From assembly GCA_026770705.1 (NCBI GenBank), contig JANJGN010000242.1:434001-498000 (forward strand): a stretch of 64,000 bases of DNA. Reading direction: 5' to 3'. The DNA comes from Isurus oxyrinchus (Eukaryota). Shown one piece after another: positions 553-63,879 of this stretch; the stretch's first letter is position 1, and each line of letters begins with the position of its first letter. Position numbers and translations under genes: made by a program. The notes under the pieces are model-generated. The model ran no database searches. It saw nothing but the letters and a program-made list of their open reading frames with translations, and was not told the DNA's origin.

Positions 553-591
553 GATTTTTGTACAGCTCTCTCCGTGTTCTGGACCACTGTG
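553..591 (-). other. Second, duplicated 23-RSS behind S1
   Basis: CACAGTG (591-585), 23-nt spacer nearly identical to the proximal one, ACAAAAATC (561-553). Confidence 0.88.
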
Positions 592-613
592 TGTCTGTAA
601 TCCCACCATGTTC

Positions 614-652
614 AGGTTTTGTACAGCTCTCTCCGTGTTCTGTACCACTGTG
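614..652 (-). other. 23-RSS of S1 (proximal)
   Basis: CACAGTG (652-646), 23-nt spacer, ACAAAACCT (622-614). Confidence 0.92.
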
Positions 653-958
653 CTGTGCGCCGACTCAGTGCACAGTAATACACAGCGGATTCGCTCAGTT
701 GCAGTTTGGTGATACTTAACCAGCTGATTTTCTCGGCAGCATCGACAGAAGCAGAAATTCTCCCCCCGGCAGCGTTTTCTTTATTTTCCTCTCCTGAAGT
801 GTGTCTCTGAAGCAGATATTCTGGAGGCTGTCCTGGGGACTGACGATACCAGTGTACTGTGTACGGACAGAAACCTGAATATTCACAGCTTAAAGTAAGG
901 GTGTCACCGGCAGCAGAGGTTTGTTCAGGCGGATTTCGGGAAATTATGGAAGTGGAAT
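653..958 (-). CDS. TRDV: Supporting TCR-delta V exon S1 (leaderless, NAR-TCR-supporting V)
   Basis: Acceptor TTCTAG|AT at 959/958, phase 1. Open frame DSTSIISRNPPEQTSAAGDTLTLSCEYSGFCPYTVHWYRQSPGQPPEYLL...KLQLSESAVYYCALSRRT has the canonical C, WYRQ and YYC plus an extra CDR1 Cys. No leader exon found upstream. Followed by a 23-RSS. Confidence 0.93.
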
Positions 959-2429
959 CTAGAAGATATAGAAAAAGGACATTTTATTTTTGCTCAGCCA
1001 CTTTTTGACCAGGTGAATATGTCAATCGCGTGAATTGCTCTGCTTTCTGCAGTAATTTACTTGCTGGAAGCTTGTTTGAACCATGTTCACTCTTATGAAA
1101 ATATAATCAACTCGGGAATTAGATGATATCTTGTTTTACATGGCGAACTCTTCCGATTATTGCTGCACTGTCTGAATTGGTGTTGTGGGCAGATTCCATT
1201 GTAAGTTTCAAACGGGTAATGGATCTATACTGGAAATGTAAATAAAAATATAAAGCTATGGAGAAAATTCATGGGCAGTGTGAACAATTGGATTGCACTT
1301 TTAAAGGGTCAGCGCCTACACGAGGGGCCGAAGGTCATCTTTCCTTGCTGGATAATTCTGTGAGTTATGTTACATTCCAGTTTCTATTTTCCTTGGTGAG
1401 ACACAAACAGGAGGGAGCATTTCATGTTCAGCGAGGCAACCAATTTCCAACAAAAACGATTTGTTGGACAGGAACGCAACTGTGTTGCATGACTGTGCAC
1501 AACAATATCCAGCACAGACTGATGGGAATCGTCAGCACCAATTGGGCAAAACCGAGAGTGAGCATCAGTGGTCAACGGTTAATCATTTACTGCGGTTTAA
1601 AACTAATCAGGAATTTCTATCTGCCTTCTGCTCTATTTCTCAATGTTCTATCAATAGTGTCCTATTTCATGCAGATCAGCTTAATTTCAAATATATGCAA
1701 TTAATTTCGTTTTATTTCTTTAATTTCTCATTCCCTTTATTTCACATTTTATTTGTGCACTTTGCGCTTTTTTCAATCGTGCGAACTCGCCCCAAAATCT
1801 CTAAGTTGTCAGTTGGGCTCAGTCTGTTCAGTTTCCGCAGCAGTTTTACTGTTAATCACAGGGAACTGCCTCTTCTGGCTCTCTGACAATTTCAACGCTT
1901 TCCGCAGGTTGACTAATTCTCTCTCGGGTTCACTGGGCGGAGGTTTCTCTCAATTTTACATTATCGAAGAAGAAGAATGTGGAAGAGGAATGGACCATTC
2001 AGCCTGTGTATATAATCAATTCCAGCCTGACCCGACCCGAAACCTAACTGACCATTTCCACCCAGCTCACTGTGTTGGTCTTTTCCATTCTCCTCCTGCA
2101 TTTTCCAGTGTTCCACTAAATATATCAATACCAACTCCAACCTCTCCCTGTGGCAGCAGGTTCCACATTCTAAACTGCATTTGTTTCAATTCATTTGTCT
2201 TAAATGTTTTATTTGTTCTGTTAGTTACTGTCATTTGCTGACGGTTACTGATTTAGACTCAATTTGTCCAGAGTAATACCGTTCATTATTGAAAAAATTC
2301 TATGGATATCCCTCAAAACTCTGTTTTCCGGAAAAAAGACACCCAGCCTGTTCAATCTTCCCAGAGAGATGTCGATTGTTGCTGATTTCTTTTCTCAGGA
2401 GTTTAAGAAATCAGGGCAGATAATCCCAT

Positions 2430-2960
2430 CAATAGAAGCAGGAGCCGCCAGATCAGCTTTCATACCTCCTCAGCCACTCAGTAATATTCGGGCTGATTTA
2501 CAACCTCAAAATCACATTCACACCCTCTTCCCATACCCCTGATCCCTTCCGTGTCCGAAAACCTGACGAATATTCTCTTGAATGCACGCAGATTATGAAC
2601 ATCCAGAGCTCTCCGAATTACGAAATGCCACAGATTCACAACATTGGTTTTACTGAAGATATATCTTCCTTCTCAGATGACTCTTTATTCTGAAGCTGTA
2701 ACCCCGAGTTATATACGCCTCAGTCTGGGAAACGCCGGCCCAGAATCTGCCCTGTCAAAGCCCTTCAGAATATTTTATGTTTACATGAGATCACCTCTCA
2801 TTCTTCTAAACTCTAGGAAGTATAGACCGAGATGACTAAATCTCTTCCCATTGGACAATCCCTTCATCACAGGAATCAGTTTGATGAACCCTTGTTGCAC
2901 TCCTTCCAATGCAGATTGATCTCACTTCTGTAAGGAGAACAAAATTTTACATAGCATTTC
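2430..2960 (-). mobile_element. CR1-like LINE 3' fragment (ORF2 C-terminus)
   Basis: Paralogous copies translate to ALEGVQQRFIKLIP..LGLYFLEFRRMRGDL..TRGHSFRIK, typical of the CR1 ORF2 C-terminus. Decayed. Confidence 0.75.
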
Positions 2961-3878
2961 GGACTGGAGTCCAATTCAGTCATTTCCTCCATAAACCTCC
3001 CCCAAAACCGAGTCGGATTGTACATTGAAAGTTGGCTAGAAATCATCCAATCCTTCTCTCACTTTCGATTATTTTTTCCTTGCTGGATCTAAATGAGCAT
3101 TCTCCTTGTTTGTAATTGTTTCCTTCTGTCCCTATTCTCCTTTATAAGATTAATGCATTACCCTGACTCGCTCACTGCACTGTGTTGTTTCAATTCACAG
3201 TAATCAGGGATACAGATACATTACACCAATACCATCTCTCAAACATTTACATTCAAAATACAGAAGTGACTGCATTTCCAAACTTTCACATTTCGGTCTG
3301 AGAGTGGAAACTGAGGAAGGTGATTGGTTCTATGAAGACAATTGATAGAAATGGCGGCCACAATGTCAATAATTTCAGTCACTGATTGTCAAACAACAAA
3401 ATTCCATCTGGACCCACATCAGGATCTCTTATATCTGAAATCCCTTGTCTCACTCTCCCCATTTGCTCCCGGGTCAGGTACTGAACGAGCCGCTGCAGGT
3501 CTCCGAACTGCCCGCAATTGTGTTGAGTTTATTCACCCGGTACCCCATTCACATTGCGCGGCTCGGACTGCAATCTGCTGCCCAGGAGAGAGCTCTGTGA
3601 CCCCGCTCCCGGACACTAAGGGACAGATAGATCTCCCTCAGTCACAGTTAACACCGGGGGCTCAGTCCGGACTGTCGACAATCTCCGCTCATTAAAAGCG
3701 ATTCAGAGTGTGAGAGTCCGTGATTTTGATTTTGTCCCCGATGTGCCCGTTACAACAATAATGGTCCAGATTCCGCCAAATCCCACATCCCACCTAAACT
3801 ACAATAATCTCAATAATAAACTGACGGTGAACATTACACGGGACAGGCTGTAATCCAAAGGGTTTTGAAACTACATAC

Positions 3879-3931
3879 CGGCTGTGACAGTCACCACCGT
3901 CCCGGATCCATCCGCATAATCAGTTTCCCAC
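3879..3931 (-). CDS. NAR-TCR J segment A1
   Basis: WETDYADGSGTVVTVTA (IgNAR-like xGxGT motif), phase-1 donor GTATGT. 23-RSS at 3932-3970 (CACGATG, 23 nt, ACAACAACC). Confidence 0.9.
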
Positions 3932-4313
3932 CACGATGACTCCGCTCTCAGTCTCCCCGGTACAACAACCACCGACACCTCAACTTGCCGTCAAATCATC
4001 ATCAGACAGTAGAAACTGCCCAATTATTCAGCGGGTTAAAATAAATAAAAAATGTTCAATGTTTCAAAGTCTCTGTCGGTTCAAGCTGTTCTTTGCGAGG
4101 CCCTGAGCAATGAGTAAATGGTCCCGGGAACGAGATGCTTGCTTCATATAAACCGAGAAAAATATCAAAGAAAGAGAACTGAATGGTGGAAATTACAACG
4201 AAATTTAACCAGATTCCAGCGATAATAACATGAACCCGACAATTCACTATCAGAGCCCGGAGAACTTACATTTAAATTATACAGAGGTATTTGCTCAGGT
4301 CTCTCCTATTGTG

Positions 4314-4330
4314 ACTCCCCAACCTAACCA
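4314..4330 (-). other. NAR-TCR D segment A1 (12-D-12)
   Basis: TGGTTAGGTTGGGGAGT. 5' RSS CACAGTT-12-ATAAAATCC (4331-4358); 3' RSS CACAATA-12-GCAAATACC (4313-4286). Confidence 0.85.
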
Positions 4331-4723
4331 CACAGTTTTACAAGTCAGTATAAAATCCCCTGGGTACTTGGTGAGATCTGGGAATATTAGTTAAACACAG
4401 GGGACTGCGGTTTCCGGTTCCAGCTGTTAGACCAGGATCACATTTGGTGTTAGGGGTTTGTAACTGGTATCAGCCATTCTCAATCCCCATTCACTGACAC
4501 CAATCCCGGGAAAGACATCACCATCCGCACACACTCGGCATTTATAAAACTCAAGATGTTAACGGCAATAATCCAATCTCATTATAAACTAGACTGTGGG
4601 GCAGACGGTGTGAGGTGGAACTGTGGGGGTTTAACTGCAGATTAACTCCGCTTTTTCATTTGTTTCTGTGATAATCTGCAGTGAGAGTTTTTGTATCGCG
4701 GGAAGCCGAGACCCATCACTGTG

Positions 4724-5009
4724 CTGTACTCGTACTGAGCTTTACAGTAATAGGTGGCGGTGTCCTCAACTCTCACATCCCGAATTTCCAGCGAAAATGT
4801 CTTTTCTGCTTTATTCACCGACACAACAAATCTCCCCCCGCTGGAGATCCGCTCCCACTCTGTCCCGGTTTGGGTTTGTCTGAAGAAGTCCCCGCCCGTC
4901 AAAGGACGAGCGTAGAAACCACCATAGAAAACACAGGTGATGGTGAGAGACTGACACTCCTTCCTGGTCACCGCTGCCGGGGTCTGTACCACTGACTGAC
5001 TGAAATAGC
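4724..5009 (-). CDS. NAR-TCR V exon A1 (IgNAR-like V), intact
   Basis: Acceptor TTCCAG; (R)YFSQSVVQTPAAVTRKECQSLTITC...GDFFRQTQTGTEWERISSGGRFVVSVNKAEKTFSLEIRDVRVEDTATYYCKAQYEY. CDR2 region is short as in VNAR; extra FR1 Cys. RSS CACAGTG-22-ACAAAAACT at 4723-4686. Confidence 0.93.
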
Positions 5010-5157
5010 CTGGAAATTAAACAGAAAGATTTTAATGGACCATGAGAGCCGAACTGCAGAGCGGGGTTAAACCCCCAAACAGTGTCTGTAATTGCGATGG
5101 AGTCGGGCAGCTGTATGTTAAATCCACACAGTGTCGGTTTGTTTGATCGGTACTCAC

Positions 5158-5200
5158 GGGGTAAACAGACCCACAGGATGAAAACAAGGAGGATTCCCAT
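5158..5200 (-). CDS. Leader exon of V A1
   Basis: MGILLVFILWVCLP, 43 nt, phase-1 donor GTGAGT, splices in frame to 5009. Confidence 0.9.
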
Positions 5201-5225
5201 CGTTCTGCTGCCTGGAACTGAGGAT

Positions 5226-5326
5226 CTATATGACGGGGAGCTGGAGACTGCGGACTTGGACGGCACTGGGAGACTGGACCTCAGAGCTGGCCTGAAATAT
5301 TTTAGGGGGATCGAGTTGATTTGCAC
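5226..5326 (-). promoter_or_regulatory. Putative V promoter (octamer-like, CRE half-site, TATA-like)
   Basis: GTGCAAAT (one mismatch to ATGCAAAT) at 5326-5319; CGTCATATAG ~30 nt upstream of the ATG. Position conserved in the paralogues. Confidence 0.4.
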
Positions 5327-6194
5327 AGGGCAATTTCGCTGAGATCATTGATTTGCCGCACGGTTCCAGGGTACCTGGCTCAGTGTTAAGTGAATTAGAG
5401 ACAGAAGGAGGCTGCAATATTCCGACTCTACATTTGGATTGTAATCCGGATGTGAAAACCCCTCCCACAATACTCTGGTGCACAGGTGTGGGGGAGGGGA
5501 GCTTTTCTTTCTGCCAGTTGTGCTGCTGCCTCCTTTCCTTGCAGTGATGAGCAGGAAGGTCTTTGTATGTATTTGTGTTGGGTGGTATGTGTTAAAGGTG
5601 GAATGTGGTCCCAGGACACCGAGAGAATCCACCTGTCCCACTCCTATCCCAATATGCAGGAGATTGTTGCCTTGTTCTTGTCAATCCTGACGGGGTTACT
5701 GCTGTTTCGCAAAAGGAAATCACAAGGTTTGCTTTGAATACCCCTGCGAATTAGCCCCGCCAACACCGGAGTGTTCTTGAGCTATGAGCCCCACACGGGC
5801 TTCATTGATTAACTGGACCCCATACAATTAAACCAGTTGCCCCCCAAACCATTAACCAAAACTTATTACACTTGCAGCATTTCCAGTTCGGATAACATTT
5901 TGACGATCTGAAACGTTAGCTCTGATTCGCTCCCCCCTGAGAGGCATCCTAACCGGCTAACATTTACCTTTCCAGAATTTTCTGTTCTTTTATTTCAGAT
6001 TTGCAGCTTTGGGGATCTCATCTTTTCGATTATTGCATCGTGTGGGATTGGAATGTCACCCCTGCTGCATTTAACCTGTCTCTGAGCTGTGCTGATTATC
6101 TTTGTTCGATTCTAACGGCTCTAGTTCATTCGCTACTGCACGGAGGGAAACCTCGCACCTAGAGACTGGGAAAAATGGTTGTTTTAAACATTTG

Positions 6195-7123: not shown

Positions 7124-7165
<42 letters not shown>

Positions 7166-7385: not shown

Positions 7386-7399
7386 TTAACCGTTCTGCT

Positions 7400-10312: not shown

Positions 10313-10369
10313 CGGCTGTGACAATCACCACCGTACCGGACCCATCCACAGAATCATATTTATAACCCA
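10313..10369 (-). pseudogene. NAR-TCR J segment B1, splice donor lost
   Basis: GYKYDSVDGSGTVVIVTA. Intact CACAGTG-23-ACAACAACC (10370-10408), but donor is CTAAGT instead of GTAAGT. Confidence 0.88.
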
Positions 10370-10751
10370 CACAGTGACACCGCACTCAGTGTCCCCTGTA
10401 CAACAACCTTCAACACCTCAATCTGCTGGGAAGTCATCATCAGACCGTTGAAAATGCCCAATTATTCAGCGGATTTAAATAAATAAACAATATTCACCAT
10501 TTCAAAGTCTCTGTTGTTTCAAACTGTTGTTGGTAAGGCCCTGAGCTCTGAGTAAATTGTCCCGGTAACAAGATATTCGCTTCCTAAAAACCGAGAAAAA
10601 TATGAAAGAAAGATAACAGAATAATGGAAATTACAGTGAATTGTTACCAGATTACAGCGATAATAACATCAACCCGACAATTCACTATCCATGCCCAGAT
10701 AACTTATATTGTGATCATTCAGAGGTATTTTCTCAGGTCTCTCCCACTGTG

Positions 10752-11252
10752 ACTGTCCCAAAATAATGCTGCAGTAATATCTGGACTGAGCTTTACAGTA
10801 ATAGGTGGCGCTGCCATCAATTCTCACATCCCGAATTTCCAGCGAAAATGTCTTTTCTGCTTTATTCGCCGACGCAACAAATATCCCCCCGCTGGAGATC
10901 CGCCCCCGCTCTGTCCCGGTCTGGGTTCATTTGAAGAAATCCCCGCCCGTCAAACGACGAGCGAAAAAAATCACCACCGAACACACAGGTGATGGTGAGA
11001 GACTAACACTCCTTCCTGGTCACCGCTGCCGGGTTCTGTGTCACTGACTGGCTGAAAGAGCCGAGGAATTAAACAGAGAGAGTTTGATGGACATTCAGAG
11101 CCGAACCACAGAGCGGGGTTAAAACCCCAGACAGTGTCTGCAATTGGGATGGACTCGGGCAGCTTTATATTCAATCCAAACAATGTCGGTTTCTTTGATC
11201 GGTACTCACGGGGTAAACAGACACACAGGTTGAAAACAAGGAGGATTCCCAT
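10752..11252 (-). pseudogene. Germline-joined NAR-TCR leader-VD pseudogene B1
   Basis: Leader 11210-11252 intact; acceptor AG>CG; TAG in FR1; +1 frameshift in CDR1 T-run; TGA in FR2. V runs directly into D (TTATTTTGGGACAGT, 10752-10766), then a 12-RSS (heptamer 10745-10751). Confidence 0.9.
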
Positions 11253-16705: not shown

Positions 16706-16761
16706 CGGCTGTGACAATCACCGCCGTCCCGGATCCATACACAGAATCATATTTATAATCA
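16706..16761 (-). pseudogene. NAR-TCR J segment C1 (dead heptamer and donor)
   Basis: DYKYDSVYGSGTAVIVTA; heptamer AACAGTG (16762-16768); donor CTAAGA. Confidence 0.87.
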
Positions 16762-17143
16762 AACAGTGGCACCGCTCTCGGTGTCCGCGGTACAACAACC
16801 ATCGACACCTCAATCTGCTGGGAAGTCATCATCAGACAGTTGAAACTGCGCAATTATTCAGCCGATTTAAATAAATAAACAATATTCATCATTTTAAAGT
16901 CTCGGTTGTTTCAAACTGTTGTTTGTAAGGCACTGAGCTGTGAGTAAATGGTCCCGGGAACGAGATATTCTCTTCATAAAAACCGAGAAAATTATGAAAG
17001 AAAGATAACAGAATGATTTAAACTACAATGCAATGTAACTAAATTACTGCGATAATAACATCAACCCGACAATTCACTATCCGGGCTCGGAGAATTTATA
17101 TTGTGATCGTTCAGAGGTATTTGCTCAGGTCTCTCCCACTGTG

Positions 17144-17642
17144 ACTGTCCCAAAATAATGTTGCCGTAGTATCTGTACTGAGCATTACAGTATTAGGTGG
17201 TGCTGCCTTCAACACTCACATCCCGAATTCCCAGCGAAAATGTCTTTTCTGCTTTATTCACCGACACAGCAAATTTCCCACCGCTGGAGATCCGCTCCCG
17301 CTCTTTCCCGGTCTGGGTTTGTCTGAAGAAATCCCCGCCCGTCAAAGGACGGGCGAAAAAACCACCAGAGAAAACACAGGTAATGGTGAGAGATTGACAT
17401 TCCTTCCTGATCACCGCTGCGGGAGTCTGCACCACTGACTGACCGACAGTGCCTGGAAGTTAAACAGAAGGAGTTTATGGAGCATCAGAGCCGAACCAGA
17501 GAACGAGGTTAAACCCCCAGACAGTGTCTGTAATTGGGATGGACTCGGCCAGCTTTATATTAAATCCCCACAATGTCGGTTTGTCTGATCGGTATTCAAG
17601 GGGTAACCAGACACACAGGGTGAAAACAAGGAGGATTCCATT
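17144..17642 (-). pseudogene. Germline-joined NAR-TCR leader-VD pseudogene C1
   Basis: Leader in-frame ATG lost (AAT) and donor GT>TT; V exon from 17452; TAA at 17193-17195 in the YYC motif. V fused to D, 12-RSS heptamer at 17137-17143. Confidence 0.9.
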
Positions 17643-21080: not shown

Positions 21081-21500
21081 AAATTAAACCTATTAAATCA
21101 ATTACCCTCGGGCCCTTCTTTCCTGATCCTCGTTACAGCAGAAGGTACAAACTACAAACCACAAACAGACCTTAAACTAGAAGCAATTACAGTCGTAAAT
21201 ACTTCCCGACTTTACCCACTACCTACCAGTCATTTCTTTCCCTTGTAGCCTCTAACGCTGTAGCCTCTAACGCTGTAGCAGGTCAAGGACACACTCAGAA
21301 GATTTAAGAAGTTGGATAGCAGAGATTCAATGTAGAGAGCACCTCCTCCCCTCTGCGCCGAATTCCCACTGTGCACCAAATTACCAATAGCCACACTCAC
21401 TCTGGCTGTGTGTCACTCAGGATGTGTTCACTCACTTTTTCGTGTGCAAGCACCATGCGCAGGTTTTTGTACAGCTCTCTCCGTGTTCTGTACCACTGTG

Positions 21501-21801
21501 CGCCGACTCAGTGCACAGTAATACACAGCGGAATCTGTCAGTTGTAGTTTGGAGATATTAAACCGGCTGATTTTCTCGGCAGCATCGATAGAAGCAGAAA
21601 TTCTTCCCCCGGCAGCATTTTCTTTATTTTCCTCTCCTGAAGTGTGTCTCTGAAGCAGATATTCCGGAGCCTGTCCTGGGGACTGACGATACCAGTGTAC
21701 TGTGTACGGACAGAACCCTGAATATTCACAGCTTAAAGTAACGCTGTCACCGGCAGCAGAGGTTTGTTCAGGCGGATTTCGGGAAATTATGGAACTGGAA
21801 T
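21501..21801 (-). CDS. TRDV: Supporting TCR-delta V exon S2
   Basis: DSSSIISRNPPEQTSAAGDSVTLSCEYSGFCPYTVHWYRQSPGQAPEYLL...LQLTDSAVYYCALSR; open and leaderless. Consensus CACAGTG-23-ACAAAAACC at 21500-21462. Confidence 0.94.
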
Positions 21802-24722: not shown

Positions 24723-24775
24723 CGGCTGTGACAGACACCACCGTCCCGGATCCATCCGCATAATCAGTTTCCCAC
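24723..24775 (-). CDS. NAR-TCR J segment A2
   Basis: WETDYADGSGTVVSVTA, donor GTAAGT; RSS CACGATG-23-ACAACAACC (24776-24814). Confidence 0.9.
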
Positions 24776-25156
24776 CACGATGACACCGCTCTCAGTCTCC
24801 CCGGTACAACAACCACCGACACGTCAACTTGCCGGCAAATCATCATCAGACAGTAGAAACTGCCCAATTATTCAGCCGTTTAAAATAAATAAAAATGTTC
24901 AATGTTTCAAAGACTCTATCGGTTCAAACTGTTCTTTGTGAGGCCCTGAGCTCTGAGTAAATGATCCCGGGAACGAGGTGCTCGCTTCATATAAACCGAG
25001 AAAAATATCAAAGAAAGAGAACTGAATGGTGGAAATTACAATGAAATGTAACCAGATTCCAGCGATAATAACATGAAACCGACTATTCACTATCCAGGCC
25101 CGGAGAATTTATATTGTGATCGTAGACAGGTATTTGCTCGGATCTCTCCCACTGTG

Positions 25157-25171
25157 ACTGTCCCAAAATAA
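25157..25171 (-). other. NAR-TCR D segment A2 (12-D-12)
   Basis: TTATTTTGGGACAGT, open in all three frames. 5' RSS CACAGCG-12-ATAAAATCC (25172-25199); 3' RSS CACAGTG-12-GCAAATACC (25156-25129). Confidence 0.9.
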
Positions 25172-25564
25172 CACAGCGTTACAAGTCGGTATAAAATCCC
25201 CCGGGTACTTGGTGAGACCTGGGCACTTTAGTTAAACAACGGGCACTGCGGTTCCCGGTTCCAGGTGTTAGACCAGGATCACATCTGGTGTTAGGAGTTT
25301 GTAACTGGGCTCAATCATTCCCAACCCCATTCACTGACACCAATCCCGGGAAAGACATCACCATCCGCAAACACTCGGCATTTATAAAACTCAAGACGTT
25401 AACGGCAATAATCCAATCTCATTATAAACTAGACTGTGGAGCAGACGGTGTGAGGCGGAACTGTGGGGGGTTTAACTGCAGATTAACTCCACTGTTTCAT
25501 TTGTTTCTGTGATAATCTGCAGTGAGAGTTTTTGTATCGTGGGAAACCGAGGCCCATCATTGTG

Positions 25565-25854
25565 AGATTTGTATCTGTACTGAGCTTTACAGTAATAGGT
25601 GGCGGTGTCTTCAACTCTCACATCCCGAATTTCCAGCGAAAATGTCTTTTCTGCTTTATTCACCGACACAACAAATCTCCCCCCGCTGGAGATCCGCTCC
25701 CGCTCTGTCCCGGTTTGGGTTTGTCTGAAGAAGTCCCCGCCCGTCAATGGACGAGCGAAGAAACCACCATAGAAAACACAGGTGATGGTGAGAGACTGAC
25801 ACTCCTTCCTGGTCACCGCTGCCGGGGTCTGTACCACTGACTGACTGAAATAGC
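25565..25854 (-). CDS. NAR-TCR V exon A2, intact
   Basis: Open V ending YYCKAQYRYKS; RSS CACAATG-22-ACAAAAACT (25564-25527). Confidence 0.93.
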
Positions 25855-26002
25855 CTGTAAATTAAACAGAAAGATTTTAATGGACCATGAGAGCCGAACT
25901 GCAGAGCGGGGTTAAACCCCCAAACAGTGTCTGTAATTGCGATGGAGTCGGGCAGCTGTATGTTAAATCCACACAGTGTCGGTTTGTTTGATCGGTACTC
26001 AC

Positions 26003-26045
26003 GGGGTAAACAGACCCACAGGATGTAAACAAGGAGGATTCCCAT
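26003..26045 (-). CDS. Leader exon of V A2
   Basis: MGILLVYILWVCLP, donor GTGAGT. Confidence 0.9.
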
Positions 26046-31180: not shown

Positions 31181-31237
31181 CGGCTGTGACAATCACCACC
31201 GTACCGGACCCATCCACAGAATCATATTTATAACCCA
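31181..31237 (-). pseudogene. NAR-TCR J segment B2, splice donor lost
   Basis: GYKYDSVDGSGTVVIVTA; intact 23-RSS (heptamer 31238-31244); donor CTAAGT. Confidence 0.88.
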
Positions 31238-31619
31238 CACAGTGACACCGCACTCTGTGTCCCCTGTACAACAACCTTCGACACCTCAATCTGCTGGGAG
31301 GTCATCATCAGACCGTAGAAAATGCCCAATTATTCAATGTATTTAAATAAATAAACAATATTCACCATTTCAAAGTCTCTGTTGTTTCAATCTGTTGTTG
31401 TTAAGACCCTGAGCTCTGAGTAAATGGTCCCGGTAACGAGATATTCGCTTCCTAATAACCGAGAAAAATATGAAAGAAAGATACCAGAATAATGGAAATT
31501 ACAGTGAATTGTTACCAGATTACAGAGATAATAACATCAACCCGACAATTCACTATCCATGCCCAGATAATTTATATTGCGATCGTTCAAAGGTATTCTC
31601 TCAGGTCTCTCCCACTGTG

Positions 31620-32120
31620 ACTGTCCCAAAATAATGCTACAGTAATATCTGGACTGAGTTTTACAGTAATAGGTGGCGCTGGCATCAATTCTCACATCCC
31701 GAATTTCCAGCGAAAATATCTTTTCTGCTTTATTCGCCGACACAACAAATATCCTCCCTCTGGAGATCCGCCCCCGCTCTGTCCCGGTCTGGGTTCGTTT
31801 GAAGAAATCCCCGCCCGTCAAACGACGAGCAAAAAAAATCACCACAGAACACACAGGTGATGGTGAGAGACTGACACTCCTTCCTGGTCACCGCTGCCGG
31901 GTTCTGTGTCACTGACTGACTGAAAGAGCCTGGAAATTAAACAGAGAGAGTTTCATGGACCATCAGAGCCGAACCACAGAGCGGGGTTAAAACCCCAGAC
32001 AGTGTCTGTAATTGGGATGGACTCGGGCAGCTTTATATTCAATCCACACAATGTCGGTTTGTTTGATCGGTACTCACGGGGTAAACAGACACATAGGTTG
32101 AAAACAAGGAGGATTCCCAT
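31620..32120 (-). pseudogene. Germline-joined NAR-TCR leader-VD pseudogene B2
   Basis: Leader 32078-32120 and acceptor (31930/31929) intact; +1 frameshift in CDR1 T-run. Junction YYCKTQSRYYCSIILGQ, then 12-RSS heptamer at 31613-31619. Confidence 0.9.
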
Positions 32121-37573: not shown

Positions 37574-37629
37574 CGGCTGTGACAATCACCAGCGTCCCGG
37601 ATCCATACACAGAATCATATTTATAATCA
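37574..37629 (-). pseudogene. NAR-TCR J segment T (C-type; dead heptamer and donor)
   Basis: DYKYDSVYGSGTLVIVTA; heptamer AACAGTG (37630-37636); donor CTAAGA. Confidence 0.87.
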
Positions 37630-38011
37630 AACAGTGGCACCGCTCTCGCTGTCCGCGGTACAACAACTCTTGACACCTCAATCTGCTGGGAAGTCATCAT
37701 CAGACAGTTGAAACTGCGCAATTATTCAGCGGATTTAAATAAATAAACAATATTCATCATTTTAAAGTCTCGGTTGTTTCAAACTGTTGTTTGTAAGGCC
37801 TTGAGCTCTGAGTAAATGGTCCCGGGAACGAGATATTCTCTTCATAAAAACCGAGAAAATTATGAAAGAAAGATAACAGAATGATTTGAACTACAATGCA
37901 AAGTAACTAAATTACAGCGATAATAACATCAACCCGACAATTCACTATCCGGGCTCGGAGAATTTATATTGTGATCGTTCAGAGGTATTTGCTCAGGTCT
38001 CTCCCACTGTG

Positions 38012-38319
38012 ACTGTCCCAAAATAATGTTGCCGTAGTATCTGTACTGAGCATTACAGTAATAGGTGGTGCTGCCTTCAACTCTCACATCCCGAATTCCC
38101 AGCGAAAATGTCTTTTCTGCTTTATTCACCGACACAGCAAATCTCCCTCCGCTGGAGATCCGCTCCCGCTCTGTCCCGGTGGGGTTTGTCTGAAGAAATT
38201 CCCGTCCGTCAAAGGACGAGCGTAGAAACCACCATAGAAATCATAGGTGATGGTGAGAGACTGACACACCTTCCAGGTCACCGCTGCCGTGTTCTGTGTC
38301 ACTGACTGTCTGAAAGAGC
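38012..38319 (-). pseudogene. Leaderless germline-joined VD pseudogene T
   Basis: Acceptor at 38320/38319; 1-nt deletion in FR2; junction YYCNAQYRYYGNIILGQ; 12-RSS heptamer 38005-38011. The leader intron is truncated at ~38381 and abuts a LINE fragment. Confidence 0.88.
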
Positions 38320-38389
38320 CTGGAAATTACACAGAGAGCCTTTAATGGACCATCAGAGCCGGACCACAGAACGGGGTTAAAATAAATTC

Positions 38390-39861: not shown

Positions 39862-39914
39862 CGGCTCTGAAAGTCACCACCGTCCCGGATCCATCCGCAT
39901 AATCAGTTTCCCAC
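39862..39914 (-). pseudogene. NAR-TCR J segment H, splice donor lost
   Basis: WETDYADGSGTVVTFRA; CACAGTG-23-ACAACAACC (39915-39953); donor GGAAGT. Confidence 0.88.
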
Positions 39915-40296
39915 CACAGTGACACCGCTCTCAGTGATCCCGGTACAACAACCAACGACACATCAAGGTGCCGGCAAATCATCATCAGACAGTAGAAACT
40001 GCCCAATTATTCAGCGGATTTAAATAAATAAAAAATGTTCAATGTTTCAAAGTCTCTGTCGGTTCAAACTGTTCTTTCTGAGGCCCTGAGCTCTGAGTAA
40101 ATGATCCCCGGAACGAGATGCTCGCTTCAAATAAACCGAGAAAAATATTAAAGAAAGGTAACTGAATGGTGGAAATTACAACGAAATTTAACCAGTTTCC
40201 AGCGATAATAACATGAACCCGACAGTTCACTCTCCGGGCCTGGAGAATTTGTATTGTGATCTCAGAGAGGTATTTGCTCGGGTCTCTCCCACTGTG

Positions 40297-40312
40297 AGTT
40301 TCCCAACCCCCA
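40297..40312 (-). other. NAR-TCR D segment H (12-D-12)
   Basis: TGGGGGTTGGGAAACT between two consensus CACAGTG heptamers (40290-40296, 40313-40319) with 12-nt spacers. Confidence 0.9.
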
Positions 40313-40705
40313 CACAGTGTTATAAGTCATTATAAAATCCCCCGGGTACTTGGTGATATCTGGGCACATTAGTTCAACACCGGGGACTGCGGTTCCCGGT
40401 TCCAGCTGTTAGACCAGGATCACATTTGGTGTTAGTGGTTTGTAACTGGGATCAGCCATTCCCAATCCCCATTCACTGACACCAATCCCAGGAAAGACAT
40501 CACCATCCGCACGCACTCGGCTGTTTTGAAACTCAAGATGTTAACTGCAATAATCCAATCTCATTATAAACTAGACTGTGGGGCAGACAGTGTGAGGCGG
40601 AACTGTAAGGGTTTAACTGCAGATTAAATCCGCTTTTTCATTTGTTTCTGTGATAATCTGCAGTGAGAGTTTTTGTATCGCGGGAAACTGAGGCCCATCA
40701 CTGTG

Positions 40706-41185
40706 TTTTCGGTACTCGTACTGAGCTTTACAGTAATAGGTGGCGGTGTCTTCAACTCTCACGTCCCGAATTTCCAGCGAAAAGGTCTTTTCTGCTTTAT
40801 TTACCGATTCAACAAATCTCCCTCCGCTGGACATCCGCTCCCGCTCTTTCCCGGTCTGGGTTTGTCTGAAGAAATCCACGCCCGTCAAAGGACGGGCGAA
40901 AAAACCACCAGAGAAAACACAGGTCATGGTGAGAGACTGACACTCCTTCCTGATCACAGCTGCGGGAGTCTGCACCACTGACTGACCGACAGTGCCTGGA
41001 AGTTAAACAGAAAGAGTTTATGGAGCATCAGAGCCGAACCAGAGAACGGGGTTAAACCCCCAGACAGTGTCTGTAATTGGGATGGACTCGGCCAGCTTTA
41101 TATTAAATCCCCACAATGTCGGTTTGTTTGATCGGTATTCAAGGGGTAACCAGACACACAGGGTGAAATCAAGGAGGATTCCATT
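40706..41185 (-). pseudogene. NAR-TCR V H: open V exon (40706-40995) with RSS but defective leader
   Basis: V open to YYCKAQYEYRK; CACAGTG-22-ACAAAAACT (40705-40668). Leader 41143-41185 lacks an in-frame ATG and has a TT donor. Confidence 0.87.
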
Positions 41186-44630: not shown

Positions 44631-45036
44631 TAAATTAAACCTATTAAATCAATTACCCTCGGGCCCTTCTTTCCTGATCCTCGTTACAGCAGAAGGTACA
44701 AATTACAAACCACAAACAGACCTTAAACTAGAAGCAATTACAGTCGTAAATACTTCCCGACTTTACCCACTACCTACCAGTCATTTCTTTCCCTTGTAGC
44801 CTCTAACGCTGTAGCAGGTCAAGGACACACTCAGAAGATTTAAGAAGTTGGATAGCAGAGATCCAATGTAGAGAGCACCTCCTCCCCTCTGCGCCGAATT
44901 CCCACTGTGCACCAAATTACCAATAGCCACACTCACTCTGGCTGTGTGTCACTCAGGATGTGTTCACTCACTGTTTCGTGTGCAAGCACCATGCGCAGGT
45001 TTTTGTACAGCTCTCTCCGTGTTCTGTACCACTGTG

Positions 45037-45337
45037 CGCCGACTCAGTGCACAGTAATACACAGCGGAATCTGTCAGTTGTAGTTTGGAGATATTAAACC
45101 GGCTGATTTTCTCGGCAGCATCGATAGAAGCAGAAATTCTTCCCCCGGCAGCATTTTCTTTATTTTCCTCTCCTGAAGTGTGTCTCTGAAGCAGATATTC
45201 CGGAGCCTGTCCTGGGGACTGACGATACCAGTGTACTGTGTACGGACAGAACCCTGAATATTCACAGCTTAAAGTAACGCTGTCACCGGCAGCAGAGGTT
45301 TGTTCAGGCGGATTTCGGGAAATTATGGAACTGGAAT
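45037..45337 (-). CDS. TRDV: Supporting TCR-delta V exon S3
   Basis: Essentially identical to S2; consensus 23-RSS at 45036-44998. Confidence 0.94.
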
Positions 45338-48245: not shown

Positions 48246-48298
48246 CGGCTGTGACAGACACCACCGTCCCGGATCCATCCGCATAATAAGTTTCCCAC
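48246..48298 (-). CDS. NAR-TCR J segment A3 (coding and donor intact; RSS heptamer mutated)
   Basis: WETYYADGSGTVVSVTA, donor GTAAGT; heptamer CAGGATG (48299-48305) has lost the invariant CAC. Confidence 0.85.
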
Positions 48299-48679
48299 CA
48301 GGATGACACCGCTCTCAGTCTCCCCGGTACAACAACCACCGACACGTCAACTTGCCGGCAAATCATCATCAGACAGTAGAAACTGCCCAATTATTCAGCC
48401 GTTTAAAATAAATAAAAATGTTCAATGTTTCAAAGACTCTATCGGTTCAAACTGTTCTTTGTGAGGCCCTGAGCTCTGAGTAAATGATCCCGGGAACGAG
48501 GTGCTCGCTTCATATAAACCGAGAAAAATATCAAAGAAAGAGAACTGAATGGTGGAAATTACAATGAAATGTAACCAGATTCCAGCGATAATAACATGAA
48601 ACCGACAATTCACTATCCGAGCCCGGAGAATTTATATTGTGATCGTAGACAGGTATTCGCTCGGATCTCTCCCACTGTG

Positions 48680-48694
48680 ACTGTCCCAAAATAA
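48680..48694 (-). other. NAR-TCR D segment A3 (12-D-12)
   Basis: TTATTTTGGGACAGT; heptamers at 48673-48679 and 48695-48701, 12-nt spacers. Confidence 0.9.
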
Positions 48695-49087
48695 CACAGC
48701 GTTACAAGTCGGTATAAAATCCCCCGGGTACTTGGTGAGACCTGGGCACTTTAGTTAAACAACGGGCACTGCGGTTCCCGGTTCCAGGTGTTAGACCAGG
48801 ATCACATCTGGTGTTAGGAGTTTGTAACTGGGTTCTGCCATTCCCAATCCCCCTTCACTGACACCAATCCCAGGAAAGGCATCACCATCCGCAAACACTC
48901 GGCATTTATAAAACTCAAGACGTTAACGGCAATAATCCAATCTCATTATAAACTAGACTGTGGGGCAGACGGTGTGAGGCGGAACTGTGGGGGTTTAACT
49001 GCAGATTAACTCCACTGTTTCATTTGTTTCTGTGATAATCTGCAGTGAGAGTTTTTGTATCGCGGGAAGCCGAGAACCATCATTGTG

Positions 49088-49377
49088 AGATTTGTATCTG
49101 TACTGAGCTTTACAGTAATAGGTGGCGGTGTCTTCAACTCTCACATCCCGAATTTCCAGCGAAAATGTCTTTTCTGCTTTATTCACCGACACAACAAATC
49201 TCTCCCCGCTGGAGATCCGCTCCCGCTCTGTCCCGGTTTGGGTTTGTCTGAAGAAATCCCCGCCCGTCAAAGAAAGAGCGAAGAAACCACCATAGAAAAC
49301 ACAGGTGATGGTGAGAGACTGACACTCCTTCCTGGTCACCGCTGCCGGGGTCTGTACCACTGACTGACTGAAATAGC
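49088..49377 (-). CDS. NAR-TCR V exon A3, intact
   Basis: Open V (CDR1 FYGGFFALSLTG) ending YYCKAQYRYKS; CACAATG-22-ACAAAAACT (49087-49050). Confidence 0.93.
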
Positions 49378-49525
49378 CTGTAAATTAAACAGAAAGCTTT
49401 TAATAGACCATGAGAGCCGAACAACAGAGCGGGGTTAAACCCCCAAACAGTGTCTGTAATTGCGATGGAGTCGGGCAGCTGTATGTTAAATCCACACAGT
49501 GTTGGTTTGTTTGATCGGTACTCAC

Positions 49526-49568
49526 GGGGTAAACAGACCCACAGGATGAAAACAAGGAGGATTCCCAT
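49526..49568 (-). CDS. Leader exon of V A3
   Basis: MGILLVFILWVCLP, donor GTGAGT. Confidence 0.9.
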
Positions 49569-51293: not shown

Positions 51294-51330
<37 letters not shown>

Positions 51331-54617: not shown

Positions 54618-54674
54618 CGGCTGTGACAATCACCACCGTACTGGACCCATCCACAGAACCATATTTATAACCCA
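54618..54674 (-). pseudogene. NAR-TCR J segment B3, splice donor lost
   Basis: GSG>GSS; intact 23-RSS (heptamer 54675-54681); donor CTAAGT. Confidence 0.87.
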
Positions 54675-55053
54675 CACAGTGACACCGCACTCAGTGTCCC
54701 CTGTACAACAACCTTCGACACCTCAATCTGCTGGGAAGTCATCATCAGAACGTAGAAAATGCCCCAATTATTCAGCGGATTTAAATAAACAATATTCACC
54801 ATTTCAAAGTCTCTGTTGTTTCAAACTGTTGTTGTTAAGGCCCTGAGCTCTGAGTAAATGGTCCCGGTAACGAGATATTCGCTTCCCAAAAACCGAGAAA
54901 AATATGAAAGAAAGATACCAGAATAATGGAAATTACAGTGAATTGTTACCAGATTGCAGCGATAATAACATCAACCCGACAATTCACTATCCGGGCCCAG
55001 ATAATTTATATTGTGATCGTTCAGAGGTAATTTCTCAGGTCTCTCCCACTGTG

Positions 55054-55554
55054 ACTGTCCCAAAATAATGCTGCAGTAATATCTGGACTGAGCTTGACAG
55101 TAATAGGTGGCGCTGCCATCAATTCTCACATCCCGAATTTCCAGCGAAAATGTCTTTTCTGCTTTATTCGCGGGCGCAACAAATATCCCCCCGCCGGAGT
55201 TCCGCCCCCGCTCTGTCCCGGTCAGGGTTCGTTTGAAGAAATCCCCGCCCGTCAAACGACGAGCGAAAAAAATCACCAACGAACACACAGGTGATGGTGA
55301 GAGACTAACACTCGTTCCTGGTCACCGCTGCCGGGTTCTGTGTCACTGACTGGCTGAAAGAGCCTGGAAATTAAACAGAGAGAGTTTGATGGACCATCAG
55401 AGCCGAACCACAGAGCGGGGTTAAAACCCCAGACAGTGTCTGTAATAGGGATGGACTCGGGCAGCTTTATATTCAATCCACACAATGTCGGTTGGTTTGA
55501 TCGGTGCTCACGGGGTAAACAGACACACAGGTTGAAAACAAGGAGGATTCCCAT
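55054..55554 (-). pseudogene. Germline-joined NAR-TCR leader-VD pseudogene B3
   Basis: Leader 55512-55554; V from 55363; TAG in FR1 and +1 frameshift; junction YYCQAQSRYYCSIILGQ; 12-RSS heptamer 55047-55053. Confidence 0.9.
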
Positions 55555-57423: not shown

Positions 57424-57465
<42 letters not shown>

Positions 57466-57802: not shown

Positions 57803-57850
<48 letters not shown>

Positions 57851-58095: not shown

Positions 58096-59619
58096 TTAAC
58101 CGTTCTGCTTTTCCTTCTGCGAAGTGTGATGCGGTGGCGCAGGGGCCTTGTCACTGCACCAGTAACCCAGGGTAATATCCCAAGTTCAAACCCCGCCATA
58201 GCACTTGAATTTAAAAATAATCTTGAATTACCTTCAGCGGGAAACCGCTGTTAACTGTCATGAAAAAAACTAACTGGCTCGCAGATGGCTTGTCCTGCAG
58301 GGGTCTCTAAACATGCAGCTAGTTAGAAATGCTGACTCTCAGTTGGCAGGGCTCTGTCATCAGCAGCGAGGCTACATATCAGCTTTTATGCTCCCATTCA
58401 AATAATTTTGGAGTATAAAAACAGATAATTATGGCCATAATCGGCAAGTTGGTAAACATGGCAGAGCGAATCAGAAATAAGAATTCATTTCCTTGACATT
58501 TCATCTGAACCAAATTTGAGGTGTTGGAAAATTCTGGTGAAAGGTCACAGGCTGGAAACTTCGTTCTCTTTCTGGTTATGCTTCCAGGCTTTTCATTTGG
58601 TGTTTCGAATTCGGATAACATTTTGCTGGGAGATACAAGAGAGGAGGGGGGCATATCACCCGCAGGGCAATCGTAGGCGCATTGTTTTAGGATCAATTTA
58701 GTCACATTTTGGGACGAGAATAAATATGCCCACATTGCGGACATTTCACTTTAAGCACGGATTTTACTGTATAATTATATTAATGTTCTTTAAGAATCAT
58801 CACACAACGGTACAAAAGAAACACGCAGGATCTCTCTCGGTTCCCTGGTACAACATCAGACAATGAAGCTCCCAACGTAGCAATTCATTTCCCCTTAATT
58901 TTTAAACTTTACGTTCCCTTTTTTTCACATTTTCATTGTGCTGTTTTGTCTTTTTGCAATCGTGCGAACTTGCCCCAAACTCTCTAAGTTGTCTGTTGGG
59001 CTCAGCCTGTTCAGTTTCCGCAGTGGTTTTTACTGTTACTCACTGGGAACTGCCGCTTCCGGCTCTCTGACAATTCATGCTCTTTCCGCTCATTAACTGA
59101 TCCTCTCCCGGGTTCACTGGGTGGAGATTTCTCTCAGTTTTACATTATCGAGGAAGAGGAATGCGGAGGGGAAATGGGCCATTCAACCTGTGTATATCAT
59201 CACTTCCGGTCAAACCCCACCAGGAATCTTATTGACCATTTACATCCAGTTCCCTGTGTTGTTCTGTTCCGTTCTCCCTCCTGCATTTTCAAGTGTTCCA
59301 CTAAATATATCAGTACTGTCTCCAACCTTTCCCCGTGGCAGCAACTTCCACATTCTGACCTGCCTTTGTTTCAATTAATTTGTCTTAAGTGTTTTATTTG
59401 TTCTGTTATTTACTATCATATGTTCAAGGCTATTGCTTTAGTCTCAGTGTGTCCAGACTGACACCGTCCTTTATTGACAAGATTTCTATGGATATTCCTC
59501 TTGGTTTTGTTTTCCAGAAAAAGGAGACCCAGCCTGTTCAATATTCCTAGATAGATATGGATTGTTGCTGATTTCTTTACTCAGGAGTGTAAGAAATCAG
59601 GGCAGAGAATCCAATCAAT

Positions 59620-60145
59620 AGAAGCAGAGGCCCACATATCACCTTTCAAACCTGCTCAGCCATTCAGTAATATCCGGGCTGATTTACAACCACCAGGTCA
59701 CATTCCCGCACTCTCCCCAGATCCCTGATCCCTTTACTGTCCGAAAACCTGGTTAATATACTCTTGAATGCACACAGATTATGAACACCCATATCTCTCT
59801 GAGTTACGGAATGCCACAGATTCACAACAACGGTTCTGCTGAAGATATTTTTTCCGTCTCAGATGACTCTTCATTCTGAAGCTGTGACTCCGAGTTCTAT
59901 ACTCCTCAGTCTGGGGAGACACCGACCCAGAATCTGCCCTGTCAAAGCCCTTCAGTATATTAGATGTGTTCATGAGATCACCATTCATTCTTCTAAACTC
60001 TAGGAAATATAGACCGAGACGTCACAATCTCTTCTCATTGGTCAATCCCTTCAACTCAGGAAGCAGTCTGATGAATCTTTGCTGCACTTCTTTCAATGCA
60101 GATTGATCTCCCTTCTGTCAGGGGAAGAAAGCTTTACACAGCATT
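59620..60145 (-). mobile_element. CR1-like LINE 3' fragment
   Basis: ORF 59779-59988. Confidence 0.75.
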
Positions 60146-61034
60146 TCGAACTGGAGTCTGTTTCAGCCCTTCCCTCCATAAAGCTCATTCACCACGGAGT
60201 CGGATTGTACTTTGAACGGCGCCCAGAAATCATCCAACCCTTCTCCCCCTTTCGATTATTTTTTAGCTTTCTGGTTCTGAATGAGCATTCTCCTAGTTTG
60301 TAATTGTTCCCTTATGTTCCTCATGCTCTCACTGCACTGTGTTGCTTATTCACAGTATTCAGGAATACAGATGCATTTCAGCAATCCCATCTCTCAAACA
60401 TTTATTTTTCATGTTAGATGAGTATCTGCATTTCCAAACTTTTACATTTCGGTCTGAGGGCCGAAAAGGGGAAGAGTGTTTGGTTCTTTGGAGACAATTG
60501 AAAGAAATGGCAGGTGCATTGCTACTAATTTTAGTCACTGATTTTCCAATAATATAATTCCACCTGGACCCACATTAGGGTGTCTTATATCTGAATTCCC
60601 TTTTGTCACTCTCCCGTTTTTCTCCTGGGTGAGTTATTGAACGAGCCTCTGCAGGTTTCCGATAGGCCGCAGTTTGTTCAGTTTATTGACCCGGTGCCTC
60701 ATTCATGTTGCGCGGCTCATACTGCAATCTGCTGCCCAGGAGGGAGCTCTATGACCCCGCTCCCGTGTTCTAAGGGACAGATAGAGCTCCATCGGTCACG
60801 GTTAACACCGGGAGTGGGGTCTGGATTGTCGATAATCTGCACTCATTAGAAGCGACTCAGATTGTGAGAGTTCGTGATGTTGATGTTATCCCCGATGTGC
60901 CCGTTGATGCAATAATTGTCCAGATCCAGTCAACTACCACATCCCACCCAAACCCTCCACTGATATCAATAATAAACTGACGGTGAACATTACCCGGGAT
61001 AGTCTGTAACCCGGCGGGCTTTGAAGTTGCTTAG

Positions 61035-61090
61035 CGGCTGTGACAATCACCGCCGTCCCGGATCCATACACAGAATCATATTTATAATCA
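61035..61090 (-). pseudogene. NAR-TCR J segment C3 (dead heptamer and donor)
   Basis: DYKYDSVYGSGTAVIVTA; heptamer AACAGTG (61091-61097); donor CTAAGC. Confidence 0.87.
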
Positions 61091-61472
61091 AACAGTGGCA
61101 CCGCTCTCAGTGTCCGCGGTACAACAACCATCGACACCTCAATCTGCTGGGAAGTCATCATCAGACAGTTGAAACTGCGCAATTATTCAGCGGATTTAAA
61201 TAAATAAACAATATTCATCATTTTAAAGTCTCGGTTGTTTCAAACTGTTGTTTGTAAGGCACTGAGCTGTGAGTAAATGGTCCCGGGAACGAGATATTCT
61301 CTTCATAAAAACCGAGAAAATTATGAAAGAAAGATAACAGAATGATTTAAACTACAATGCAATGTAACTAAATTACTGCGATAATAACATCAACCCGACA
61401 ATTCACTATCCGGGCTCGGAGAATTTATATTGTGATCGTTCAGAGGTATTTGCTCAGGTCTCTCCCACTGTG

Positions 61473-61971
61473 ACTGTCCCAAAATAATGTTGCCGTAGTA
61501 TCTGTACTGAGCATTACAGTAATAGGTGGTGCTGCCTTCAACTCTCACATCCCGAATTCCCAGCGAAAATGTCTTTTCTGCTTTATTCACCGACACAGCA
61601 AATCTCCCTCCGCTGGAGATCCGCTCCCGCTCTTTCCCGGTCTGGGTTTGTCTGAAGAAATCCCCGCCCGTCAAAGGACGGGCGAAAAAACCACCAGAGA
61701 AAACACAGGTAATGGTGAGAGACTGACACTCCTTCCTGATCACCGCTGCGGGAGTCTGCACCACTGACTGACCGACAGTGCCTGGAAGTTAAACAGAAAG
61801 AGTTTATGGAGCATCAGAGCCGAACCAGAGAACGGGGTTAAACCCCCAGACAGTGTCTGTAATTGGGATGGACTCGGCCAGCTTTATATTAAATCCCCAC
61901 AATGTCGGTTTGTCTGATCGGTATTCAAGGGGTAACCAGACACACAGGGTGAAAACAAAGAGGATTCCATT
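61473..61971 (-). pseudogene. Germline-joined NAR-TCR VD gene C3: open VD exon (61473-61781), defective leader
   Basis: VD open through YYCNAQYRYYGNIILGQ; 12-RSS CACAGTG-12-GCAAATACC (heptamer 61466-61472). Leader 61929-61971 has no in-frame ATG and a TT donor. Confidence 0.88.
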
Positions 61972-63879
61972 CGTTCGGCTGCCTGGAGCTGATTGTTTAT
62001 ATGACGGGAAGCTGGAGACTGCAGCCCTGGACTGCACTGGGAGACCGGACCTCAGTGCTGGGCTGAAATATTTTAGGGGGATCGAGTTGATTGGCACAGG
62101 GCGGTGTCGCTGAGATTGTTGATTTGCTGCACGGATCCCGGGTTGCTGGCTTAGTTTAGTGTGAATAAGAGAAAGGTTTATAAAAGGAGGCTGCAATTTT
62201 CTGACTCTACATTTGGATTGTGATCCGGATGTGAAAGCCCCTCCCACAATACTCTGGGGTACAGGGGTGGGGGGAGGGGAGATTTTCTTTCTGCCAGTTG
62301 GGCTGCCGCATTCCTTACCCCGCAGTGATGAACTAGGAGGTTGATGCATGTGCTGTACTGGGTGGTGGTTGTTTAAGGTGGAACGTGGGCCCAGGACGCA
62401 AGGAAAATTCCCCCTCCCCGCTCTTACTCCAGTATTGCGGAGATTGTTTAACATCATCCTGAAAGGGCTGGCGGGACCTCAGTTCGACTCCTGATCTGAA
62501 GTTCGGCGCCTCAGACCCGGCATCTTCCCTGGCCCAGCAACCGAGGAAAGGTTAGAATATGAAGTAGCCCAGTGACATTACCAATATCTTGGTAGGTCTG
62601 CACAACATGCACATAAACTAGTTATGGTTAGTTCAGTTCGCTGGATTGCGAGCTTGTCGTTCGGAAAAATGTAACAGCACTGGTTCTATTGGGGTTCTGC
62701 CTGAGGCAGTCTTGTGGCCTTCCTGCTCCTGCGGGTGGAAGGCAATTGTAAAGCAAAGCTAACAAGAAAGCAACTGCAGAAGCAACTGCAGAAAATCGGC
62801 CATTGGCGGAGCAGACAAAAAAATAATGCAAAGAACAAACTCCCCTCGTCATTGAAACAATTGCTTCCCATACCAGCTCTGCGGCGGATTACAGACAAAT
62901 GATGCTTCATGTCAGCTCTGTTTGATTTCCAGCTTGGGGACATTCAGAACTTCCGTTTGAACCGACACAGTTTGAAAAGACACCCGGAAGGGCAATGGAC
63001 TTTGGGGAAACACTGTGCTTGCAGCTTGCTTTAAAGTTCACATTCACTGCTTTCTGTTCTGAAAAAATGGGTTCTTTTTATTCGTTCACGCAATGTGGGC
63101 TTCGCTGGCAGGGCCAGTATTTATTGCCCATCCCTAGCTGCCTTTGAGAAGGTGGTGGTGAGCTGCCTTCTTGTCCACTGCAGACCCTGTCGTGTAAGAG
63201 CACCTGCTGTGCTGTTTGGGAGGCAGTTCCAGGATTTTGACCTAGTGGCAGCAGAGGAAAGGCGATATGTTTCGAACTCACGATGCTGAGTGATTCTGAG
63301 GTGTTAAGAATTATCTCTTACCCAGCAACAGCAACACTCGTCCCAATAAGCCCTATGACAAGGCCGAGGTCAAAGACTTCATAAACCTGCCTGCGCTGTT
63401 AGGGGAAATGCTGCGCAGAATTGAGGGCAGGGGCGGAAAGACCGTTAAGGGGCGAAAGGGACATTGAAACAGCTGCACATCTCACAAATAGGGCCGACAG
63501 CACGTCACATAGACGTGGCCGATTATTTGACCTTCAGCCGATGAAATCACAATTTTTTCTGCATGTCCGGCCAGTTGGTGAGTATTTTTTAATGTAATTG
63601 AAATGCGGCTTTGAGGCTACCACAGAGTGTAAAGTACTGTTTAAAATGAACATGTGCATGTCTAGTGCAGTATAAAAGTAATTAATATAAATAGGGATAT
63701 GGTCTGGAATGGTGTTAACAAAGACAGGGCTGGTGTGATATTAATAAATATCGGGTCTAATTCAGTAATCACTGAGGCGAGGCCTGTAGTGAAACATGTA
63801 GAAATGGCATCGTGTGCAACAGGGAACTTGATTAGAGCAGCCAGAACGAAGACAGGACCCCACGAAATCTAAATCGAGT

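Follow-up and report, generated by a model that had tools for sequence, protein, structure and literature searches.

How does a shark T-cell receptor (TCR) locus come to hold variable (V) and diversity (D) segments that are already joined in the germline? The question is raised by a window of 64,000 bp from Isurus oxyrinchus (contig JANJGN010000242.1, here C242, positions 434001-498000), which lies in an NAR-TCR array encoded on the minus strand throughout. Read on that strand, the order is C3-B3-A3-S3, H-T-B2-A2-S2, C1-B1-A1-S1, where S is a leaderless exon for the supporting V-delta and the other letters are NAR cassettes. Queries from the first unit recovered 10 V, 10 joining (J) segments, nine leaders and three S exons, with three, four and three NAR cassettes per unit and one S in each. 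This order had been given in a preliminary description of the stretch and was confirmed; left out of it was the main feature, namely that six of the ten cassettes are V-D joined. We read the locus as an inverted NAR-TCR array upstream of the D-J-constant (C) delta genes, in which the six joined cassettes derive from one inherited V-D join, likely made by RAG in germ cells, and assign this reading a probability of roughly 0.8.

The join is defined by what is missing. A 393-bp spacer that extends from the V heptamer to the 5' heptamer of D is present in four of the ten cassettes and absent from B1, B2, B3, C1, C3 and T. In these six, no remnant of a recombination signal sequence (RSS) from the spacer is left, and the V end is followed by 10 bases and then by a complete 15-nt D of the A2/A3 type with its 3' 12-RSS. 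The distance from the YYC motif to the D RSS is 49 nt in every joined copy of the whole array (13 of 13), against 401-474 nt in 45 split cassettes, and the J donor is changed from GT to CT in the same 13 copies. On its V side the junction matches split V ends for 24-27 nt, and the heptamers of split cassettes start at 22-32; thus, 3-8 nt would have been trimmed and 7-10 nt of the junction are unmatched, including one possible P base.

The same junction was recovered in a second species. When DNA contigs of run X16, labelled as another organism, were compared with split A1, they showed a joint at 4316-4734, and the letters inserted there read as the reverse complement of the junction. Thus, the join is inherited and arose before the two species diverged; since the flanks of B and T are 89% identical, it also predates the B/T split. 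The join is heritable, not somatic. Blood is a common source of DNA and tandem repeats are prone to mis-assembly, so that somatic lymphocyte rearrangements might have been caught in the assembly, or the repeats might be an artefact of it; this is extremely improbable for a junction common to the second species and to 13 copies whose flanks differ by up to 11%. Across A and S, the three units of the window share 92-95% identity, and the units have lesions of their own, which also argues against an assembly duplicate.

Which agent made the join? The missing spacer could be an ordinary deletion in a dead cassette, given that the six window copies are all pseudogenes from a single event within the B/C/T family and that the array has further deletions (the T leader, the H/T fusion). 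We consider this improbable, since the right break coincides exactly with the border of the D heptamer and the left one lies 0-8 nt from the V border, with extra bases and no shared end sequence; a random deletion would hit both borders by chance with p ~3e-4, a rough value for one event that was found without a joined query. In addition, the same geometry is seen elsewhere in the genome in no fewer than five other V-D junction types and in two V-D-J types, many of them retrieved by a joined query. RAG acting in germ cells is the likely agent, because of the likeness to germline-joined shark immunoglobulin (Ig) genes, for which such joining is established (PMC2193156, PMC4279169; these and all sources below are cited from the parts of their text available).

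The identity of the array was assessed against known marks. NAR-TCR has an NAR V with a leader, a Cys in the a-b loop and no Trp at WYRK, together with a leaderless supporting V with a Cys in complementarity-determining region 1 (CDR1) (PMC1845163), whereas an IgNAR cluster has three D segments and its J is spliced to Ig constant exons (PMC4279169). The top PDB match of the A1 V is a VNAR (E=4e-19), as are most of the top rows, and among named proteins shark gene models come closest, with 87% identity between S and a model from Cetorhinus. In A1-A3, the leader reads MGILLVFILWVCLP before its GT donor, the a-b loop Cys is found in RKECQSL, and the WYRK Trp is absent (GDFFRQ). S1-S3 are leaderless, with no leader-like ATG..GT exon of hydropathy above 2.0 within 1.5 kb (A1 and A2 controls, 2.9-3.4), and the supporting V-delta carries the CDR1 Cys (SGFCPY). 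Each cassette has its own D and J, with signals arranged 22-23/12-12/23. As previously claimed, the phase-1 J donor (GT) is in frame with the leaderless S exon, A1-S1 reading ...VTVTA-D-STSII... as predicted from DNA. An IgNAR or Ig cluster was rejected, given one D per cassette, S as the exon after J, and no constant exon anywhere in the array to which J could be spliced instead. Together with the linkage to a TCR-delta-like C described below, the unit is, by every DNA feature tested, an NAR-TCR, in support of the initial identification.

Where, then, are the delta genes? They had been expected downstream, toward lower coordinates, but the 110 kb below the window gave no TCR J on either strand. 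Instead, D-J-C-delta is linked to the array at C242:590-619k, 92-121 kb beyond the upper end of the window and on the plus strand, so the minus-strand array is inverted relative to it. D-delta (C242:590155-590172, plus strand) has a 5' 12-RSS and a 3' 23-RSS, J segments on the same strand precede C, and the C gene lies at C242:616.9-619.4k (plus strand), where the transmembrane (TM) exon best matches the TCR-delta constant. A C-exon query gave two matches in the genome, one of them C242:616927 on the plus strand. The region separating the array from C is filled by ordinary V segments, the D and the J segments, and further up C242, on the plus strand, many J segments form a J-alpha array (14 rows in one 10-kb sample and 8 in another), and there is a second TCR TM exon at 752k, plus strand, which is probably C-alpha.

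The whole array covers about 380k-549k of C242 and comprises 27 NAR cassettes and nine S exons in nine units, with 1, 4, 4, 3, 4, 3, 3, 3 and 1 cassettes per unit plus one cassette without S. Self-comparison of the window resolved a 6.4-kb cassette period (79-88% identity) nested in units of 21-23.5 kb (94-96%). In tblastn with S (E<=1), only the three S exons were recovered as such, the remaining 11 matches being NAR V exons. In raw DNA reads of another sample (run X23), V and S depth over window positions 600-5400 was 37-57 at ~0.38x sampling, or roughly 100-150 related copies per genome, in agreement with the assembly matches.

Features of the window (positions from its first letter; all on the minus strand)
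Feature	Position	Strand	State
S1, supporting V-delta, leaderless, CDR1 Cys (SGFC)	653..958	-	23-RSS at 652, nonamer one A short; RSS in tandem duplicate (second copy ~591-553), both nonamers imperfect
A1, intact split NAR cassette	3879..5200	-	leader 5200-5158, V 5009-4724, 22-bp-spacer RSS 4723, D 4330-4314 (12/12 RSS), J 3931-3879, donor GT
B1, V-D joined, junction 10776-10767	10313..11252	-	acceptor TCG, +1 frameshift, stops, J donor CT
C1, V-D joined, junction 17168-17159, putative H/T chimera	16706..17641	-	dead leader, stop at YYC, J heptamer AAC, donor CT
S2, supporting V-delta	21501..21801	-	open; single consensus 23-RSS at 21500; 5 nt shorter at coding end than S1
A2, intact split NAR cassette	24723..26045	-	D of 15 nt (25171-25157), the D carried by joined copies
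B2, V-D joined, junction 31644-31635	31181..32120	-	+1 frameshift, stops, J donor CT
T, V-D joined, junction 38036-38027	37574..38381	-	leader deleted, -1 frameshift, J heptamer AAC, donor CT
H, split cassette	39862..41184	-	open V, four consensus heptamers; leader dead, J donor GG
S3, supporting V-delta	45037..45337	-	open; single consensus 23-RSS at 45036; 5 nt shorter at coding end than S1
A3, split cassette	48246..49568	-	leader, open reading frame (ORF) and donor intact; J heptamer CAGGATG
B3, V-D joined, junction 55078-55069	54618..55554	-	+1 frameshift, stops, J donor CT
C3, V-D joined in frame, junction 61497-61488 (CNAQYRYYGNIILGQ), putative H/T chimera	61035..61970	-	dead leader, J heptamer AAC, donor CT

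The working units would be A1-S1, A2-S2 and, doubtfully, A3-S3, each giving a delta chain with two V domains. V, D and J would be joined within A by deletion and S would be joined to D-delta/J-delta by inversion of 111-155 kb, since the S signals and the 5' signal of D point in the same direction; the NAR J would then be spliced to S. With inversional joining of S the NAR cassette would be kept upstream, and the inverted layout would retain the upstream units after rearrangement.

The claim that only the proximal cassette of each unit is intact held in part. A1 and A2 have a leader, an open V, four CAC-bearing signals and a GT donor, and all seven distal cassettes of the window carry disabling lesions; A3, otherwise like A1 and A2, has lost the CAC of its J heptamer. 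Loss of CAC usually blocks RAG cutting, and D-J joining in A3 is doubtful. Over the whole array, leader, frame and donor occur together in eight of the nine proximal cassettes and in none of the 17 distal ones. The proximal A cassettes mix V ends and D segments, the D at C242:504202 being H-like, which suggests germline exchange between cassettes. Such differing D segments, the D 3' RSS of C and T (identical to that of A2) and the open V-D frame of C3 and of three of the four T copies of the array would fit a continued use of joined or distal cassettes, either by joining of their V-D 12-RSS to the proximal J or as conversion donors. We regard such use as very improbable, given that none of the distal cassettes combines leader, ORF and donor (there is no functional leader in C, H or T, and B is frameshifted) and that dN/dS in B/C/T is 1.36. 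Rather than being used, the joined window copies are pseudogenes carried along with the intact A-S pair.

Several points weigh against the account given so far. The pairwise dN/dS estimates (codon bootstrap), 0.50 for eight A copies (95% 0.23-1.16) and 1.36 for nine B/C/T copies (0.78-2.68), have overlapping intervals and come from pairs that are not independent. The copy number is taken from one assembly, and two pairs of units outside/inside the window are 98-99% identical. Depending on the ancestral V end, the number of untemplated bases may be anything from 0 to 10, and signatures of TdT or of hairpins are at most putative; germline-joined light chains show little trace of TdT (PMC2193156). 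Because all 13 joined copies carry both the join and the donor loss, either of the two may have come first. The inversional use of S follows from signal orientation only. Finally, contigs of six runs (five guessed to be RNA and one DNA) were compared, X5 and X6 against window 600-5400 and X4, X8, X9 and X17 against one cluster on contig C26; these gave repeat-dominated fragments with no splice joint, which carry no weight either way, and neither a transcript nor a somatic rearrangement was observed for any A or S.

How did the array reach its present form? Two earlier proposals, that the NAR part was multiplied without S and that the distal copies decayed before block amplification, are both supported. 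The homology of B, C and T to the J-to-S intron of A stops at base 2183 of 2921, ~740 bp before the S acceptor, and no S remnant was found between the cassettes of the window, which supports duplication without S. Decay is placed before amplification by shared lesions over the whole array, namely donor CT in all joined copies and the B frameshift in six of six B copies. In addition, up to V column 148 C carries the H state at 25 of 28 diagnostic sites, and from column 164 on 22 of 22 agree with T; identity is 96-98% to H upstream and 96% to T downstream, and the difference in unit length (2693 bp) is close to the H-T distance (2676). Thus H-T-B-A-S would be the older unit and C-B-A-S its deletion product, C being, by these sequence matches, an H/T deletion chimera. 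A further possibility, H as a recent recombinant of C by A, was rejected, as the 3' flank of H is 87% identical to A. The history would then be that NAR cassettes were duplicated without S, one of them became V-D joined and lost its J donor to give rise to B and T, the H-T-B-A-S unit was amplified, and a deletion between the V exons of H and T produced C and the shorter unit. In this array, NAR cassettes would have undergone birth and death while the A-S pair stayed fixed.

In comparison with known systems, the array shares with the NAR-TCR of nurse shark and elephant shark the IgNAR-like V with leader, the a-b loop Cys and the absence of the WYRK Trp, as well as the leaderless CDR1-Cys supporting V-delta, the two separate rearrangements and the TCR-delta locus. 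In those species both V domains are described as somatically rearranged, and no such layout is given; here, there are 3-4 NAR cassettes per supporting V, germline V-D joins and an inverted layout (PMC1845163, PMC5931798, PMC3149040). The germline-joined Ig genes of cartilaginous fish (VD-J, VDJ, VJ; IgM1gj, NS4 light chains; PMC2193156, PMC4279169) likewise have the RSS fully excised and coding ends trimmed, are fixed in the population, are mixed with split relatives and include some pseudogenes. They differ in that here TCR-delta NAR cassettes are affected, 7-10 junction bases are unmatched and all window copies are dead. Marsupial TCR-mu is alike in its three-domain delta-derived chain, tandem clusters and germline-joined V (V-mu-j; PMC7615758, PMC3457774). 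There, however, the joined V is the supporting V and is attributed to retrotransposition, whereas here it is the outer NAR V that was joined, in situ and without loss of its leader intron, and the supporting V would still undergo rearrangement. A 2023 paper, in its available text, names marsupial TCR-mu as the only TCR with a germline-joined V. In the available parts of the literature, neither a germline-joined NAR-TCR nor several NAR cassettes per supporting V was found, and one supplementary file of PMC3964593 has no NAR-TCR term; the primary NAR-TCR papers may describe the layout in nurse shark. An inherited V-D join in a shark TCR-delta array, common to two species, would show that RAG acts in germ cells on TCR loci as well as on Ig loci, with junctions that are datable. 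As the joined copies of the window are dead, their functional weight is limited, and the functional question sits with intact-looking copies elsewhere.

The NAR matches on C26 and C242 (150 of 641 candidates scored) and their neighbours were annotated, with two fragments dropped and contigs C140, C151, C152, C210 and C301 excluded as possible duplicates. Of the resulting 101 V exons, 45 are split, 34 V-D joined, 15 V-D-J joined and seven unclassified, so that about half (49/101) are joined; three of the 34 V-D joined may be a V end fused to a 12-RSS without D. At C26:29987234, 30013670 and 30036280, the V end directly abuts a 12-spacer signal with no clear D, making these candidates for a hybrid joint or a heptamer-to-heptamer deletion. 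On C26, the checks for leader, frame and donor were passed by 13 of 20 V-D joined cassettes, and seven of these 13 have a stop just 5' of the RSS that trimming would need to remove. The V-D joined cassettes at C26:31103547, 38700397 and 29842339 have a leader, an open frame, good 12/23 signals, a GT donor and S downstream, and would need only one NAR rearrangement.

Five C26 clusters (30.06, 31.16, 35.94, 37.91 and 38.77 Mb) have a distal intact split cassette, then one to three V-D-J joined exons and then S, so that intactness of the proximal cassette alone fails as a general rule. Among the 14 V-D-J joined exons on C26, ten have an open frame, an acceptor and a donor but lack a functional leader, one is intact with a leader and three have a stop; dN/dS is 0.38 (0.21-0.70) among five V-D-J joined copies with a common leader stop, a value that gene conversion could mimic. 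The same V-D-J junctions are found in run X16 contigs and in NCBI gene models, which are predictions (Carcharodon P0006, P0012 and P0014; Cetorhinus P0029). Some S exons in the five clusters look broken near the acceptor. It is tentatively conceivable, although we consider it rather unlikely, that sharks build fixed TCR parts by germline RAG joining, with V-D-J exons spliced as internal domains or with a leader-bearing invariant NAR-TCR. If true, leaderless V-D-J exons as internal domains would give TCR-delta chains with at least three V domains.

The regions C26:37.894-37.915 Mb and 38.750-38.769 Mb each hold an intact split cassette, three V-D-J joined exons and S, and are candidates for multi-V chains. 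Two to three NAR V domains ahead of one supporting V are also present in gene models of Heterodontus (P0009), Callorhinchus (P0002) and Carcharodon (P0006). C26:29.90-29.93 Mb holds a second D-J-C-delta locus, 84-93% identical to C242:590-619k, which suggests two C-delta genes in the genome; at this identity, C242 was rejected as an alternate haplotype of the C26 locus. NAR-S pairs are scattered across C26:23-40 Mb in both orientations.

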